A stretch of 64,000 bases of DNA from an uncultured delta proteobacterium (GCA_963812015.1 CAWETI010000002.1:480001-544000), one strand, 5' to 3'; positions 1-6,509 are shown, numbered from the stretch's first letter. The notes: generated by a model from the sequence alone, not told the origin. Made by a program: numbers and translations.

Positions 1-341
1 AGGATCGTCGCAGTCCCCGGGAGAAGAGCGTTGAGAAGCTGAAGGAATCTGTCAGGGCAAAGACCACTCGCCGTCGGCGGGGTAGCCTGGTGGAGGTCAT
101 CCAGGACATCAACCAAGTGCTGATAGGCTGGTTTGAGTATTTCCGGCACAGCACAGAGGCCCAGGTCTTCCAAGATCTGGATGTGTGGGTGGCCGGCAGG
201 TTGCGTAATGTAATGCGCTGGCGGTTTGTCTCAGGAAGAACACGCTGCCAGACTCTCTGGCCGGATGCCCGTTTCAACGACCAAGGGCTCTTTTCCTTAG
301 GTAATGCCCACGACCGGATGGCTTCCAGGGACTGGAACTGA
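1..341 (+). CDS. C-terminal part (maturase/thumb, domain X) of a group II intron-type reverse transcriptase; 5' end lies outside the window
   Basis: Frame is open from base 3: ...KSVEKLKESVRAKTTRRRRGSLVEVIQDINQVLIGWFEYFRHS...LDVWVAGRLR...WPDARFNDQGLFSL, typical of group II intron maturase C-termini. The RT catalytic core is not visible. Confidence 0.8.
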   Translation, partial: DRRSPREKSVEKLKESVRAKTTRRRRGSLVEVIQDINQVLIGWFEYFRHSTEAQVFQDLDVWVAGRLRNVMRWRFVSGRTRCQTLWPDARFNDQGLFSLGNAHDRMASRDWN

Positions 342-1060
342 ACCGGAGTTGATGAGCTGGGAGTTCCTCTGGAGGAACCAGCGATAGTTATCATGATCAT
401 AAGCCCGGCTCCAACTGGGAAAGGTAATCTATTAACCACTAACCTGCTGACCGATATCGGCGGCAGTACTGATCACCAGCAGCCTTGCTCTTCGGCCTTA
501 CCAACCCCGGCGAGGGGTGTTGAAGATGATGAGCAGATGCTGGTCTTGAAAATGATTATCCGGTGCCGCCTCTTCGGGGCTGCCAGAAAATCTACAACCT
601 GGAGGGCTTGAGTTGTGGAGTTGGAGCACGACCACGGCGGCAGTATTGTATGACGCCGACGACTCCACCAAGCCACCAAAGACATGATCACTGGGCTCGG
701 CTTCTTATAACGCCTGTCTGGAGATCATCCGCCCGGAAAACGGGTATCACGGAACTGGATCACCAACAGGATCGACAATTTCAGATCAGCACTGATTCTG
801 GAAGAAGCACTGTTGGGGAAAATGTTAATTCCGGCGACCGGCCTCTTTAGACTGGTCCCGGCGGAGGTTGAACGGACAGTGCCCGAATTTTCCCTCCGAA
901 GACAGACCACAAAAATCCTGGCAACGGGACTGCCACTAGAGCAACACCAGCTCCAGGTGGCAAGATCTCAGTTAAACAGACCGGGGCCGACTTGATGTTG
1001 GTACAAGCCTTGCCGGGCGTGACCGACAAAAAAGAACCCGTTGCCGGTGATGATGTGGTT
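342..1060 (+). ncRNA. putative long structured non-coding RNA downstream of the RT
   Basis: Near-continuous stems by eye (343-419, 444-466, 475-544, 605-674, 713-770, 905-1060). Non-Watson-Crick positions read mostly as G-U on the + strand. No credible ORF. Confidence 0.5.
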
Positions 1061-1175
1061 CATAAATCAAATAAAACAACCGTCATCTGGAAATGACCAG
1101 AAATGATAATCCCAGTTGTACTCCATCTGGCAATATTAAAAGTTGGAAGCTGGCCCGGGCACGAGGAAACTATAG

Positions 1176-1406
1176 ATGGAAGAATATCTCACAGCAAAAG
1201 AATTGAGCAAACGCATAAAGATGGCTGATGGAACTATCCGCAACCTCGTGTGCAAGGGAGTGTTTGTAAAAGGCAAACACTATGTGAAACCGACACCAAG
1301 AAAGTTGTTATTTATTTGGAGTGGAATAGAGGGATGGCTCCATGGCACCAGTGATTGTTGCCCTGAAATGATAGGAGGTAATGGTAATTGTTTGATCAAT
1401 ATATAA
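1176..1406 (+). CDS. excisionase-like helix-turn-helix DNA-binding protein
   Basis: MEEYLTAKELSKRIKMADGTIRNLV HTH pattern, GAGG RBS, directly upstream of the integrase. Confidence 0.7.
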   Translation: MEEYLTAKELSKRIKMADGTIRNLVCKGVFVKGKHYVKPTPRKLLFIWSGIEGWLHGTSDCCPEMIGGNGNCLINI

Positions 1407-1417
1407 AGAGCATTCAT

Positions 1418-1447
1418 TTGACATCGGCCACTGTTTCAAGTTACCAT
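1418..1447 (+). promoter_or_regulatory. candidate sigma70 promoter of the integrase
   Basis: TTGACA-18 nt-TACCAT. Confidence 0.4.
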
Positions 1448-1503
1448 GAACGTGGTGACATCCAAACAAAAGGGAGGTGGTTGGAAAGGCGGAGGGCTTG
1501 TTA

Positions 1504-2760
1504 ATGGAACATGCGCAGATCATCGATTTTCCCAAGGGAAAAGCGGATAACCACCAACCGAAAACCCCAGACCGGCTAAATGCCGGGAAAACCGGCAGGG
1601 TGTACAGCCGGGGAGGCAAGCTCTGGGTAGACTTTTATTATCTGGGCGAACGGGTCCGGGAGCGTTCAGGGCTCGATGACACCCGAGCTAATCGGGAATT
1701 CCTCCGGAAGAGGTTGGACCTTATCGTATCCCAGATTGATAATGGGATCTTTGAATTTGGCAAAAGCTTTTCACACAGCAAAAAGGTGGCGCATTTCACC
1801 AGCCTGGAGGGAAGAACCTTCCGGAAGGACCCGAAGGATATCACCTTCAATAAATATGCGGAGCAATGGTGGACAGAGATGCACCCAGGCATGAGCGCCA
1901 GCCAGGCAAGGGACTACACCAGCATTTTGAAGGTCCATCTCATGCCTTACTTCGGGCAGCTGCCCTTCTGCGAGTTCCGGCCAGTGCTCATGAAGAAATT
2001 TCTGGCCCACCTGCAGACAAAAAGGACGCCTGGGGGAAAGCCCTTGTCTGGCAAGCGCATCCACAATATTTTGATTCCCTTGCGGGTGATCTTTACCGAT
2101 GCATGCGGGGAATACGGCTGGAATGATCTGGCGGACCCTTTTGCTGGGCTCAAGTTACCCAACGTCAAGAAAATTCGCATTCACCCTTTCACCATCGAGG
2201 AGTGGGCTATCCTGATGGAGTTCATCCCGGCGTGGTACAGGCCGTACTTCGAACTGGCGGTGCTGACGGGAATGAGGCCGTCGGAGCAGGTGGCATTAAA
2301 ATGGTCAGCGGTTGACGATCAGTTTATCCACATCGAATTAAGCCGTGTAAGAAACCAGGAAAAGGCTGAGCTGAAAACAGCCGCCAGCAATCGCCGGATT
2401 GAAATCCGGCCATCCATGAAGAAGATCCTGGAGCAGCAAAAAAAGCAAACCGAGGGATTTCAAACTCCCTATGTCTTTATCAATACCGCAGGAAGGCCGA
2501 TCCTCCAGGACAAACTGCGGGAACTGTGGAGACGGACTGTCAGAAGGAGCCAACTGCTTTACCGGAGGATGTATGAGACCCGCCATACCTTTGCTTCCTG
2601 GGCATTGGCGGCGGGGGAGTCCCCGGAGTGGGTGGCCAGGACCCTGGGACACGTAAATACTTCAATGGTCTATAATACCTACGGGCGCTACATCCCCAAC
2701 CTGACCAGACAGGACGGCTCGGCTATCGAAGGTTTATGGGCTGGGGCGAGAGGAGAATAA
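1504..2760 (+). CDS. tyrosine recombinase/phage-type integrase with N-terminal arm-binding domain
   Basis: RGGKLWVDFYYLGERVRE arm domain; catalytic motifs TGMRPSE, KTAASNR, YETRHTF, LGH...Y; GGAGG RBS before ATG 1504. Confidence 0.93.
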   Translation: MEHAQIIDFPKGKADNHQPKTPDRLNAGKTGRVYSRGGKLWVDFYYLGERVRERSGLDDTRANREFLRKRLDLIVSQIDNGIFEFGKSFSHSKKVAHFTSLEGRTFRKDPKDITFNKYAEQWWTEMHPGMSASQARDYTSILKVHLMPYFGQLPFCEFRPVLMKKFLAHLQTKRTPGGKPLSGKRIHNILIPLRVIFTDACGEYGWNDLADPFAGLKLPNVKKIRIHPFTIEEWAILMEFIPAWYRPYFELAVLTGMRPSEQVALKWSAVDDQFIHIELSRVRNQEKAELKTAASNRRIEIRPSMKKILEQQKKQTEGFQTPYVFINTAGRPILQDKLRELWRRTVRRSQLLYRRMYETRHTFASWALAAGESPEWVARTLGHVNTSMVYNTYGRYIPNLTRQDGSAIEGLWAGARGE

Positions 2761-2850
2761 GTCAACCTGGATAGGCACAATTTTAGGCACAATGACCAAA
2801 ATCCGGGTCACTCTAATGAGATAACTACTTTAAATATCTAACTAATTAAT

Positions 2851-2927
2851 TGGTCGGGGCGGCGGGATTTGAACCCGCGGCCTCTTGGTCCCAAACCAAG
2901 CGCGCTACCAGGTTGCGCCACGCCCCG
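2851..2927 (-). tRNA. tRNA-Pro (TGG)
   Basis: CGGGGCGTGGCGCAACCTGGTAGCGCG-CTTGG-TTTGGGA-CCAAG-...GGTTCAAATCC...CCCCGACCA; 77-nt cloverleaf with encoded CCA. Confidence 0.97.
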
Positions 2928-2992
2928 ATGAGGCAGGATGATCGTGCCAACATAATCCGAAAATAAACGTCGGACGCCCCTTTGGGTATACC

Positions 2993-3619
2993 TCAGGAGA
3001 GTTCTTCCGGCAAGGCGGCCAACAGGTTCTTGAAGGCCGCCAGGGCCCGGGCCCGGTGGCTGATCCGGTTCTTGATCTCCGGCCCCAGTTGGGCCATGGT
3101 GGCGCCATACTCCGGCACCCAGAAGACCGGGTCGTAGCCGAAGCCTGTTTCGCCCCGGGGTTCCAAGGCGATACTCCCTGGGCACTCGCCCCGGGCCCGG
3201 AAGAGCCGCCCGTCGGGCAGGGCCAGGGCGATCTCGCAGACGAAGCGGGCGCGCCGCTCACTCCAGGGGACGTCTTTGAGCTCCTCCAGGAGTTTGCCCC
3301 AGTTGTCGGCATCAGTGGGGGTAGCGGGGGAGGTCCGGTCCAGGGCATAGCGGGCCGAGAAGACCCCCGGGGCGCCCCCCAGGGCGTCCACCACCAGACC
3401 GGAGTCGTCGGCCAGGGCGGCGACTCCGGTGAGCCGGGCCACCGCCAGGGCCTTGGCCGCGGCGTTCTCGGCAAAGGTGGCGCCATCTTCCGGGATCTCG
3501 GGGAGGTGGGGATAATCGGCCAGGCTCAGGAGAACGACCCCGGAGTCTTCGAGGAGCGCCTGAAGCTCCCGGACCTTGCCGGGATTGCGGGTGGCCATCA
3601 CCAGGGTAAGGGGAGCCAC
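2993..3619 (-). CDS. rdgB: XTP/dITP diphosphatase (Ham1 family)
   Basis: ATRNPGK, ADDSGL, GFGYDPVF, SHRARA motifs; follows rph. Confidence 0.93.
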   Translation of the reverse strand: MAPLTLVMATRNPGKVRELQALLEDSGVVLLSLADYPHLPEIPEDGATFAENAAAKALAVARLTGVAALADDSGLVVDALGGAPGVFSARYALDRTSPATPTDADNWGKLLEELKDVPWSERRARFVCEIALALPDGRLFRARGECPGSIALEPRGETGFGYDPVFWVPEYGATMAQLGPEIKNRISHRARALAAFKNLLAALPEELS

Positions 3620-4335
3620 GGCGCCAACACCTCTGCCTGAATTCGGGTGAGCTCGCTGATCCCCACCTGGGCCAGCTCCAGCATGCGGGGAAGCTGGGCG
3701 GCGGGGAAGGGCCCACCCTCCCCGGTTAACTGCACCTCCACCAGGTCGCCCTGGCCGGTGGCCACGAAATTAGCGTCCACCTGGGCGTGGGAGTCCTCGT
3801 CGTAATCGAGGTCCAGGAGCAGCCGCTCCCCTAAAAGCCCGACGCTCACCGCGGCCACCTGGTCCCGGACCGGAGAGTCCTCCACCACCCCCCGGCGCCG
3901 GAGCTTCTCCAGGGCTAGGCACAGGGCCACGAAGGCGCCGGTGATGCTGGCGGTGCGGGTGCCGCCGTCGGCCTGGATGACGTCGCAGTCGACGATGACG
4001 GTGCGGGGGCCCAGGGCGACAAGGTCCACCACCGCCCGGAGGGACCGGCCGATGAGGCGCTGAATCTCCAGGGTGCGGCCCCCCACCCGGCCCTTGAGGG
4101 ACTCCCGGTCACCCCGGGGATGGGTGGCTCGGGGCAGCATGGCGTATTCGCCGGTGACCCAGCCGCCCCCGGAAGCAAGGCGGAAGGGCGGCACCACCTC
4201 GCTCACGGTGGCGGCGCAGATGACCCGGGTGCGCCCCCAAGTGATGAGGCAGGAGCCTTCGGCGAAATCCAGATAACCCGGGGTGATGGCTATCTGCCGC
4301 AGTTGATTGAAGTCGCGAGTTTGGGGGCGCCGCAT
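3598..4335 (-). CDS. rph: ribonuclease PH
   Basis: GWVTGEYAMLPRAT, GRTLEIQRLIGRSLR, DCDVIQADGGTRTASITG. Confidence 0.96.
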   Translation of the reverse strand: MRRPQTRDFNQLRQIAITPGYLDFAEGSCLITWGRTRVICAATVSEVVPPFRLASGGGWVTGEYAMLPRATHPRGDRESLKGRVGGRTLEIQRLIGRSLRAVVDLVALGPRTVIVDCDVIQADGGTRTASITGAFVALCLALEKLRRRGVVEDSPVRDQVAAVSVGLLGERLLLDLDYDEDSHAQVDANFVATGQGDLVEVQLTGEGGPFPAAQLPRMLELAQVGISELTRIQAEVLAPWLPLPW

Positions 4336-4346
4336 GGTTCCGGGAT

Positions 4347-4520
4347 TTAGGCCTTAAGAGATTGGCGCAAGGTGTCGATGACCTGGTTAAAGGTGTCGGT
4401 AAAGGACGCCGGGGAGACGCGCCCCACTTCGATGAACTTGACCACGATCTCCTTGGCCACCTTAAGGAGGAGTTCTTCCCGGGGGGTCAGGGGTGGCGGG
4501 GATTCTTTGTCCCGGGCCAT
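4347..4520 (-). CDS. small hypothetical protein (57 aa), not in the ORF track
   Basis: MARDKESPPPLTPREELLLKVAKEIVVKFIEVGRVSPASFTDTFNQVIDTLRQSLKA; AGGGAG RBS; host-like codon usage; ends 11 nt before the rph start. Confidence 0.7.
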   Translation of the reverse strand: MARDKESPPPLTPREELLLKVAKEIVVKFIEVGRVSPASFTDTFNQVIDTLRQSLKA

Positions 4521-4760
4521 GAGTACGGCTCCCTGTGCAGGCGTTTTTTTGGTATAGTGAGTTAGTGAGCAGTAAGCCCTTGGCCGCGGGATCCTCGACG
4601 GCCCATGTGACCACTGCCTCCCTAACCGCTAACTGAAAAATTTCCCCGCCGGCCAGAAGAAGGCCAGTTCAAATGGCCGACGGGCGGGTAAGAAGAACCG
4701 GAACAGCCCTCCTTAAGGCACATGATAAACCAGGGGCACCCGCAAGGCAAGGGGGAATCC

Positions 4761-6509
4761 GTGAGCCGCATCCGCATTCTGGACGCCCAGGTGGCGGCAA
4801 GAATCGCCGCCGGGGAGGTCATCATCCGCCCCGCCGCGGCGGTCAAGGAGCTGGTGGAAAACGCCCTGGACGCCGGGGCCCGCACCATCGCGGTGGCGGT
4901 GGAGGATGGGGGGCGTAAGCTCATCCGGGTGGTGGACGACGGCGGCGGCATGAGCCCCGAAGAAGTGCCCCTGAGCCTGCTGCGCCACGCCACCAGCAAG
5001 CTGAGTGCGGAAACCGACCTGTTGGGCATCACCACCCTGGGGTTTAGGGGCGAGGCCCTGCCGTCCATCGCGGCAGTGAGCCGCCTCACCCTCATCAGCT
5101 GCCCCCCGGGGGCGTCGGGCGGGTTCCGTCTGGTGGCCCAGGCCGGCGAGATCCTTTCAGCTTCCCCCTGGGCCGCGGCGGCGGGCACCCAGGTGGAGGT
5201 GGCGGACCTCTTTTTCAACACCCCGGTCCGGCAGAAATTCCTCAAGAGCAAGGAAGCGGAGCAGGCCCAGATCCTGGAGGTGCTCCGCCACCTGGCCCTG
5301 GGCTACCCGGGGGTCCACTTCACCCTGAGCACCCCGGCCCGGACCTTGCTTAAGGCCCCGGCCGCGGCGAACCTCATGGAGCGGGTGGCGGCGGTCTTCA
5401 GCCCGGAGCTGGCGGCCCACATGCTTCCCCTGTCCCTGGCCCAGGGGGCCTGGCAGGTGACCGGCCTGGTGACCGAGCCGGATTTCACCCTGGCCACCAC
5501 CCGTTTTCAGGTCTTCCTGGTGAACGGCCGGGTGGTGGCCGACCGCATCCTGGGGGGGGTCTTGCGGGAGGTCTACGCCGGGCTTTTGCCCCGGGGCCGG
5601 CACCCGGCGGCGGTGGTGAATCTGACGCTTCCCCCCGAGGCCGTGGATGTCAACGTCCATCCCGCCAAAACCGAGATTCGTTTTCACGAGCGGGGCCGGG
5701 TCTACCCCCTGTTGTTGAGCGCTCTGCGCCAGGGCCTGGGCCCCCTGTATGGGGAGCGCCCCCGGCCCGGGGTGAGCTGGCAGCCGGAGGCGGCCCCCCG
5801 GGTAGCCGAAAGCCCCCTCCCCGACCTGTGGTCCTCCAGGGGAACGGCGCCGGCGGGGGCGGGGCCAACGGTCTTCTTCGGAGGCGAACCGGCGACGATG
5901 CCGACTCCCGGGGCGCACCCCGGTCCCCGGAGCTGGCGGTTCCAAGACCTCACCGTCTTGGGCACCCTGGCCCAGACCTACATCCTGGCCCAGGGGCCCG
6001 ACGGCCTCATCCTCATCGACCAGCACGCGGCCCATGAACGCGTTCTCTACGAGGCCCTCAAGGCCAAAGGGCCGGCCGCGGCGGCCCAGACCCTGCTCTT
6101 TCCCCGGGTGGTGGAAGTGAACCCGGCCCAGGCGGATTGGGTCAACGAACACCTGGACCTCCTGGCCCAGGCGGGCCTGAAGCTCGAGCCCTTCGGAGGG
6201 GCGAGCTTTCTCATCACCGCGGTGCCGGCCTGTCTGGCGGGGGCCGACCTGGAGGCGGTGGTGGCTGAGGCGGTGGAGGCCCTGGCGCCGTGCAAAAGTT
6301 TCACCCATCCCCAGGAGGTGAGGGAGCAGGCCCTCCAGTTCATGGCCTGCCGGGGGGCGGTCAAGGCCGGGGAGACCCTGGCCCCGGAGGCCATCGCCGC
6401 CCTGCTGGTCCAGTTGGATGAGATTCCGGTCTCCTCCCACTGCCCCCATGGGCGGCCCCTCTGGCGCCTCATGAGCTACCACGATATCCGGCAGAGCTTT
6501 CGCCGATAA
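4761..6509 (+). CDS. mutL: DNA mismatch repair endonuclease MutL
   Basis: IAAGEVIIRPAAAVKELVENALDAGA, GFRGEAL, DQHAAHERVLYE, CPHGRP. Confidence 0.96.
   Translation: MSRIRILDAQVAARIAAGEVIIRPAAAVKELVENALDAGARTIAVAVEDGGRKLIRVVDDGGGMSPEEVPLSLLRHATSKLSAETDLLGITTLGFRGEALPSIAAVSRLTLISCPPGASGGFRLVAQAGEILSASPWAAAAGTQVEVADLFFNTPVRQKFLKSKEAEQAQILEVLRHLALGYPGVHFTLSTPARTLLKAPAAANLMERVAAVFSPELAAHMLPLSLAQGAWQVTGLVTEPDFTLATTRFQVFLVNGRVVADRILGGVLREVYAGLLPRGRHPAAVVNLTLPPEAVDVNVHPAKTEIRFHERGRVYPLLLSALRQGLGPLYGERPRPGVSWQPEAAPRVAESPLPDLWSSRGTAPAGAGPTVFFGGEPATMPTPGAHPGPRSWRFQDLTVLGTLAQTYILAQGPDGLILIDQHAAHERVLYEALKAKGPAAAAQTLLFPRVVEVNPAQADWVNEHLDLLAQAGLKLEPFGGASFLITAVPACLAGADLEAVVAEAVEALAPCKSFTHPQEVREQALQFMACRGAVKAGETLAPEAIAALLVQLDEIPVSSHCPHGRPLWRLMSYHDIRQSFRR

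Follow-up and report, generated by a model that had tools for sequence, protein, structure and literature searches.

An orphan group II intron-type reverse transcriptase and a folded non-coding region on a tRNA-Pro island of an uncultured delta proteobacterium

The window analysed here is a stretch of 64,000 nucleotides from an uncultured delta proteobacterium, G000:C2:480001–544000, where G000 denotes the source genome. It opens within the gene of a group II intron-type reverse transcriptase (RT), whose 3′ third occupies positions 1–341 of the plus strand. The gene is followed by 834 nucleotides of non-coding DNA, a small protein in the position of an excisionase (xis), a tyrosine integrase (int), and a tRNA-Pro(TGG) gene, which form the last part of an integrative island. 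The RT has lost both halves of the intron RNA, domains DI–DIII upstream and DV–DVI downstream. The non-coding DNA contains a folded stretch (445–1175) that, judged from its sequence, is a candidate RNA belonging to the island backbone and not linked to the RT. Sequence outside the window is given as locus L002, which consists of the window start plus 15 kb upstream, 18 kb in all, so that a window position equals the L002 position minus 15000.

The full open reading frame (ORF) of the RT spans G000:C2:479166–480338 (L002:14166–15338), starts 834 nucleotides before the window, and encodes 391 residues. The initial annotation, made from the window, had recognized a group II maturase C terminus in the ORF ending at 341. 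This part alone matches GIIM with an E value of 6e-14, and the upstream core recovered from L002 is not decayed and carries an intact YADD active site. The endonuclease (En) domain is absent. The full protein matches the Pfam families RVT_1 (E 6.8e-40) and GIIM (E 5.6e-13) and passes the NCBIfam equivalog TIGR04416, group II intron RT/maturase, with 391.8 bits against a cut-off of 300. The closest solved enzyme is the GsI-IIC RT (PDB 6AR1) at 265 bits; the G2L4 RT (PDB 9D4S) scores 78 bits. Models of DRT systems all remain far under their cut-offs, with 73 bits for Drt3a (200), 55 for Drt2 (390), 30 for Drt4 (450), and 28 for Drt5 (550), as does the model of the St85 retron RT. In PADLOC, the best DRT model, RT_UG17, reaches 182 bits, less than the 298 bits of the generic RT model. 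The gene is present in a single copy in G000.

Just ahead of the RT start (L002:14146–14175), a GGAGG motif is followed after 6 nucleotides by an out-of-frame ORF of six codons, whose stop overlaps the ATGATG start of the RT. This arrangement suggests possible translational coupling. In-frame read-through of a sister protein, P0004, gives a similar leader.

No domain V or VI lies behind the ORF, as the initial annotation had stated, and domains DI–DIII are missing as well. Rfam intron families give no match at E ≤ 1 in window 1–6000 or the 18 kb of L002, nor at E ≤ 10 in L002 13050–16250, so that no known intron family covers the region; the Rfam D1D4 families give no match in the same L002 searches. 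Rfam is not blind to this RT lineage, since RF00029 is located ~35–110 nucleotides from the ORF end in seven of the eight nearest genome relatives (46–55% identity). The contig of the eighth stops inside DV.

A lineage covariance model, R1, was composed of DV–DVI from 10 relatives and applied without filters to 57,958 bases. It is positive in the loci of five relatives (L003, L004, and L056–L058) at 47.8–91.2 bits. In L002 and in two loci of the same genus, L014 of genome G011 and L055 (G003:C20), it scores no more than 11.1 bits (E 1.3) and never near the RT. The best R1 scores in G000 and G011, at the noise level of ~10–11 bits, fall at L002:6333–6405 and L014:2903–2965. Both adjoin a homologous 119-residue ORF of the two islands, probably by chance. 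A scan for the shape of DV recovered 10 of 10 controls and found 0 matches on either strand of L002 13000–16300. A circularly permuted arrangement, with DV–DVI ahead of DI–DIV, is likewise not seen there, no DV being found at any position of either strand.

The 5′ half of the intron was sought with a profile built from eight relatives, which recovered 8/8 in leave-one-out tests (E 1e-89 to 1e-185) and also matches L007 and L056–L058. The profile, which covers DI–DIII and the GUGYG 5′ end, finds nothing in L002, L055, L145 or L146. Elsewhere in G000, the sole DV among 150 first-look candidates scored is located at C3:740025–740100, where the adjacent RT is 38% identical and belongs to another class. 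The surrounding locus (G000:C3:738962–742804, L013) is the only complete-looking group II intron of the genome, with an RF00029 DV and a D1D4-2 match. Signs of mobility of the RT under study, such as several copies or a cognate ribozyme elsewhere in G000, were not found. As no DV partner was found in the genome, the RT cannot splice or retrohome. Eight bases overlapping and following the RT stop, AACCGGAG, equal the linker of the relatives plus the first bases of DV, after which the likeness ends (compared by eye; R1 gives no score). At most, this remnant hints at a 3′ breakpoint where DV begins.

The nearest RT proteins among 8000 scored candidates comprise four at 73–77% and three at 57–59% identity, followed by thousands at ~55%. 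The RT and seven metagenome sisters (P0003–6, 8, 10, and 11) are all 386–407 residues long. They have a common start and a common C-terminal end, do not have the N-terminal extension seen in the 55% group, and retain every RT motif in 8/8 rows of alignment A2. In a 49-row tree, these eight short RTs form their own clade (97/91). The sister clade (94/94) contains all 10 DV-confirmed relatives of this class, and the two clades together are joined at 100/99. As the initial annotation had it, the RT is of the group II intron type.

The genomes searched for close copies of the RT were those of 61 relatives, 401 sampled from the phylum, and 83 from the order, which equals the class; the search yielded only a fragment in G011 and a stub in G015. 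None of the seven sister proteins is encoded in the genomes searched. Scans of the metagenome and genome_contigs sets with the single RT protein give relatives at 36–51% only. With alignment A2, the best matches among viral_contigs are at 52–53% and are all canonical introns, and plasmids reach at most 45.7%. One of the viral entries, L057 (an IMG/VR contig of 2092 nucleotides), has identical DV–DVI at both ends (44–128 and 2009–2092). This pattern suggests that a lone intron was assembled as a circle or in tandem and then classed as viral. G025, a genome of the same family, carries an intron RT 39% identical to this RT, for example at L018. It gives 15 identical matches and one near-identical match (249.6–250.8 bits), as well as a shorter one at 42%, and the intron is proliferating. 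Upstream of the D1D4-3 match of this intron, a 'skipping-rope' RNA match falls just short of its threshold (36.4 bits, cut-off 36.7).

The non-coding DNA between the RT and xis is divided into four plus-strand segments. The RT-proximal spacer (342–444) is present in this copy only and has no counterpart in G003, G011 or G015, the three genomes of the same genus with sister islands; by alignment, the RT-copy-specific segment ends at 444. Backbone block 1 (445–744), a structured-RNA candidate, is 82% identical to G003:C20. The following 175-nucleotide segment (745–919) corresponds to an alignment gap in G003 and is flanked by short ACGGG repeats. Backbone block 2 (920–1175) is 84% identical to G003 and is composed of most of a multibranch domain (905–1060) and an A+T-rich xis-proximal stretch.

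The six sets of stems listed in the initial annotation were all located within 1 nucleotide of the places given, on the plus strand, by reading of the sequence. The spacer holds a stem between GAGCTGGG (354–361) and CCCGGCTC (404–411). CTGCTG (444–449) pairs with CGGCAG (461–466), ACCAGCA (475–481) with TGCTGGT (538–544), GTGGAGTTG (615–623) with CGACTCCAC (660–668), and CCTGT (713–717) with ACAGG (766–770). The multibranch domain is closed by GACCACA (905–911) and TGTGGTT (1054–1060) and includes a pairing of CTGGCAACGGG (918–928) with CCCGTTGCCGG (1037–1047).

The region behind the RT folds above chance with a bias to the plus strand, in agreement with the initial annotation. For 445–1175, the folding z score against shuffled sequences is -5.96 on the plus strand (0/35 shuffles) and -2.6 on the minus strand. 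The corresponding values for 342–1160 are -5.39 and -2.86 with 20 shuffles, and -4.68 and -3.45 with 35. Coding controls yield -0.5 and -1.9 for the RT and -1.66 and -1.6 for the integrase. The excess is located in block 1 (-3.0, 0/60 shuffles, and -0.75) and block 2 (-2.55 and -1.68), not in the 103 nucleotides adjacent to the RT, 342–444 (-0.43 and +0.47). The intervening segment 745–919 gives -1.45 and -0.89. A sliding fold scan of 150 nucleotides agrees with these block results, and the homologous region of G003 scores -3.68 (0/60 shuffles) and -2.57.

The xis-proximal stretch of block 2 is nearly invariant and contains two copies of CATCTGG[A/C]AAT 40 nucleotides apart. The DNA directly upstream of xis is likely the promoter/operator of xis. 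The non-coding DNA contains no iteron-like repeat array, only two-copy repeats of 10–17 nucleotides, and no terminator-like site is found on the plus strand from the RT stop to xis. ORFs of the flanks, including those inside 445–744, have no Pfam match. A blastx comparison of both RT flanks with 121 RT proteins returns nothing better than E 1.7, except for the extension of the window's own ORF. A minus-strand small RNA, estimated at ~170–190 nucleotides and framed by a promoter-like 1133–1106 and a terminator-like 935–919, was considered and rejected, its T-run being deleted in G003.

The island of G003 (G003:C20) is collinear with that of G000, and the non-coding DNA upstream of the RT is 74–82% identical. 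The G003 RT is a frameshifted stub of ~170 nucleotides, covering about residues 21–72 as read from the alignment, with 80% identity over the best 90 nucleotides. The ATG of a primase-helicase follows the stub directly. Beyond this gene and ~620 nucleotides of unique DNA, G003 matches window 445–744 (82%) and 920–2882 (84.6%), with 745–919 missing. The primase-helicase contains an NrS-1 polymerase HBD, D5_N, and Pox_D5 and is split into ORFs of 570 and 188 residues. Most of its helicase core seems to be missing (L055 9192–11479, minus strand), and the G003 island may be decaying too.

In G011, RT residues 85–370 (77.6% amino acid and 81.7% nucleotide identity) are fused in frame to another island ORF. 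No flanking region of the G000 RT is present beside this fragment. G015 contains RT codons 3–40 (76.8%) within ~60 nucleotides of a match to window 1014–1058, followed by xis-int at 73.8%, and retains only the xis-adjacent part of the folded region. The 45-nucleotide match at 1014–1058, examined as a possible RT remnant inside the spacer, overlaps the end of the G015 RT stub and is read as a deletion junction. G030 possesses the same xis-int pair, with an integrase 70% identical and only ~157 nucleotides upstream of xis. The RT is truncated in all three sister islands, that is, in 3/4 island copies of the genus. By this comparison, it is ancestral at this island position and intact only in G000.

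These islands bear on the claim of the initial annotation that the region behind the RT serves as the enzyme's own template or scaffold RNA. The two blocks recur at 82–84% in G003 next to an RT stub and a primase-helicase, the G011 fragment has none of the region next to it, and in G015 the part adjoining xis is all that is left. The claim is therefore not sustained in this form. The wider proposal, an intron-derived RT with a distinct RNA on a tRNA-Pro island, stands with respect to the ribozyme-less RT, the island, and the folding, but not with respect to an RNA that belongs to the RT.

Comparison with the G011 fragment over 286 codons gives the RT a dN/dS (omega) of 0.27 with a dS of 0.51, which indicates purifying selection on the RT sequence until recently. 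With respect to G003, omega is 0.148 for the integrase (dS 0.61) and 0.18 for xis (dS 0.315). Aligned with G003, the non-coding blocks show differences at 46/289 and 41/252 sites, or K ~0.18 by simple arithmetic, which is under both of these dS values. Their indels have lengths that are not multiples of three. By these measures, 445–1175 is non-coding and evolves slower than synonymous sites.

Covariation, proposed as a check in the initial annotation, gives the structure no support. Pairs of the minimum-energy fold of G000 that change in G003 were counted, in these two sequences only, and about half of the changed pairs break. On the plus strand, block 1 has 9 pairs kept and 13 broken, and block 2 has 10 kept (one changed on both sides) and 10 broken. 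The minus strand has 5 kept and 14 broken in block 1, and 6 kept and 11 broken in block 2. The two-sequence comparison of G000 and G003 offers no compensatory changes usable as structure support.

The element itself is, as the initial annotation had supposed, an integrative tRNA-Pro island. It spans ~44 kb and is delimited by tRNA-Pro(TGG) (2851–2927, minus strand), the integration target, and by a distant direct repeat. The 40-nucleotide sequence at 2839–2878, at the 3′ end of the tRNA, recurs with 98% identity at G000:C2:438763–438802, 44 kb upstream, as the other island end. The tyrosine integrase (1477–2760, plus strand) adjoins the tRNA and contains Phage_integrase (E 3.2e-19) and an arm-binding domain, Arm-DNA-bind_2 (E 6.7e-16). 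The protein in the AlpA-like excisionase position (1176–1406, plus strand) is 76 residues long, shows a weak match to the helix-turn-helix family HTH_17 (E 0.051, under cut-off), and is conserved in G003, G015, and G030.

The last part of the island is sequentially composed of hsdR, a 467-residue ORF, and hsdM on the minus strand, ~1.1 kb of non-coding DNA, the RT, the 834-nucleotide non-coding stretch, xis, int, and the tRNA. The 467-residue ORF has no Pfam match and occupies the position of hsdS between hsdR and hsdM. The RT is the last cargo gene, with a type I restriction-modification operon on one side and the xis-int module on the other. The same island encodes a 755-residue STAND-type NTPase (L002:1050–3317; G000:C2:466050–468317), in which HEAT repeats are combined with a P-loop region, weakly matched by AAA_25/nSTAND3, and with a NACHT C-terminal helical domain, as well as a small SSB-family ORF (L002:5164–5481, E 2.8e-7). 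No primase is present on the G000 island, and the best G000 matches lie on another contig. Contigs from four DNA runs are short and of low depth, and none is bridging. One contig of run X4 matches the 745–919 segment (record 31: L002 15655–15993, 25 differences).

Taken together, the locus probably combines an orphan intron RT devoid of its ribozyme with a separate folded region of the island backbone, a leader placed before xis-int. The RT gene would descend from a mobile group II intron that lost its ribozyme. It is most likely a stranded intron ORF, possibly still yielding an active free-standing RT, and most likely not part of an RT-plus-RNA machine. The 445–1175 region would be a separate feature of the backbone, retained before xis-int also in G003, where a primase-helicase replaces the RT. 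It may be co-transcribed with the gene before it, giving a structured leader or intercistronic RNA, and this RNA together with the xis-adjacent promoter/operator stretch would control xis-int expression. A regulatory RNA of this kind ranks first among the roles of the folded stretch, solely by position and strand bias. Several points weigh against this account. The role as leader or regulator is drawn from position, and G030 has only ~157 nucleotides upstream of xis, so that a long leader is not obligatory. Drawn from two backbone sequences, the structure and the strand are tentative. The stub in G003 makes the RT ancestral at this spot, and the backbone region could once have served it. A ribosome-binding motif upstream and an intact ORF, despite the loss of both RNA halves, are atypical of random decay. 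The short-RT clade is sister to the DV-confirmed clade, not nested within it, and a clade of its own with shared N and C termini suits a lineage domesticated long ago more than it suits an accident of recent date.

Such a lineage, a free-standing group II intron-like RT forming a new G2L-type clade of ~391 residues that serves defence-type islands as useful cargo, for phage defence or DNA repair, without the neighbouring RNA, is a less likely though credible alternative. The short clade is monophyletic with conserved ends, omega is 0.27, all RT motifs are kept in the eight rows of A2, and no DV partner was found in the genome. Its island neighbours include hsdR/M and the HEAT and NACHT-type NTPase. 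PMC2602772 and PMC4424553 describe free-standing group II-like RTs that keep a maturase domain but have no ribozyme, and PMC11761039 reports basal double-strand-break repair activity for a mobile-intron RT. The truncation of three of the four island copies in the genus does not fit well with domestication, and other clade members may be ordinary introns. Moreover, a recent loss is hinted at by AACCGGAG, left over where DV would begin, and the protein scores as an ordinary intron RT, over the TIGR04416 cut-off and far from G2L4 (78 vs 265 bits; YADD, not YIDD). A doubtful but conceivable extension joins the RT and its seven sisters as an old and perhaps undescribed clade, no literature search having been aimed at it. 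This clade would have shed its ribozyme and become selected cargo of defence-type islands, acting free-standing in defence, repair or island maintenance and maybe using co-transcribed plus-strand spacer RNA.

The remaining readings concern the non-coding DNA. It is unlikely that 445–1175 acts as DNA, for example as a replication origin for the primase-helicase of the ancestral island or as a set of protein-binding sites. In G003 the region does follow the primase-helicase gene; it is also under constraint when compared with dS, and its xis-proximal part has spaced repeats. However, the repeats form no iteron-like array, strand-biased folding excess is not predicted by such a role, and the G000 island is without a primase. 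Use of the ~750-nucleotide downstream RNA by the RT as template or scaffold, in the manner of retrons and DRT systems, is quite unlikely. The RT and the region adjoin on the same strand, no terminator-like site intervenes, and the folding excess is strong and plus-biased, all of which would suit it, but the blocks persist in G003 where the RT is dead and the primase gene separates stub and region, and they are missing by the G011 fragment and mostly missing by the G015 stub. The RT-specific 103 nucleotides are not unusually folded, the plus-strand pair changes (9 kept/13 broken and 10/10) lend no help, and no DRT or retron model fits the RT. As the RT is ancestral here, the idea keeps a certain standing, though without its main support. 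A complete group II intron whose ribozyme is highly divergent, split or circularly permuted and was missed is very improbable. Room for it would exist in the non-coding DNA, ~1 kb of which flanks the ORF on either side. The reading is countered by three independent DV detectors, negative on both strands with positive controls, and by the 5′-half profile. Both flanks are also common to G003, where nearly all of the RT is gone, and the single DV found in the genome belongs to another intron.

Several known RT systems, including retrons, DRT2, DRT9, and DRT3, use a non-coding RNA. The present locus resembles these defence systems in that a defence-type island carries a single RT gene with a long, folded stretch of non-coding DNA beside it. 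It differs in that the RT falls outside those families and the folded stretch is not RT-linked across islands. A long, well-folding stretch beside an RT is not necessarily the RNA of that RT, and the island comparison assigns 445–1175 to the xis-int side. The stretch itself is an uncharacterised, constrained, and strand-biased non-coding region that may control excision. The island type is presumably akin to P4-like satellites, with an AlpA-type xis, a tyrosine integrase, and a prim-pol/D5 primase-helicase. Points of likeness are the 40-nucleotide att repeat at the tRNA 3′ end, the order xis-int-tRNA, and the primase-helicase in the sister island. In G000, by contrast, an intron-derived RT replaces the primase, and a folded non-coding spacer of 0.7–1.2 kb precedes xis.

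Mobile group II introns of the sister clade (L016, L017, L033–L037, and L056–L058) and the GsI-IIC RT share with this RT the domain order RT0–7, X, and a short C-terminal tail, with no endonuclease. The sister-clade RTs are 46–55% identical to it. Their introns contain GUGCG...DI–DIII and DV–DVI, whereas this RT is without both, is present in a single copy, and has no partner ribozyme found. The sister-clade ORFs also carry an N-terminal extension that this RT lacks. According to PMC4424553, most bacterial group II intron copies are truncated or inactivated, many amid other mobile DNA. The present copy is likewise part of an island and has fragmentary sister copies. In contrast to such remnants, the ORF here is whole with an omega of 0.27, yet both RNA halves are gone.

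G2L RTs are close to intron RTs and have no DV nearby, and the maturase domain is kept in G2L3–5, according to Simon and Zimmerly (2008; PMC2602772). They are also described as RTs without ribozymes in PMC4424553. This RT answers to the defining description given in PMC2602772: it is closely related to intron RTs, retains the maturase domain, and has no ribozyme around it. PMC4244168 lists YIDD (G2L4) and YVDD as active-site signatures, and this RT differs from G2L4 in having YADD. It is also much nearer to true intron RTs.

Ribozyme-less relatives of group II intron RTs have given rise to several host functions, among them those of the CRISPR-associated RTs and of G2L4 in repair. In view of these origins, each intact and selected orphan RT is a candidate for another such step. 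The orphan RT described here, a member of a small clade of its own, is one such candidate for domestication.

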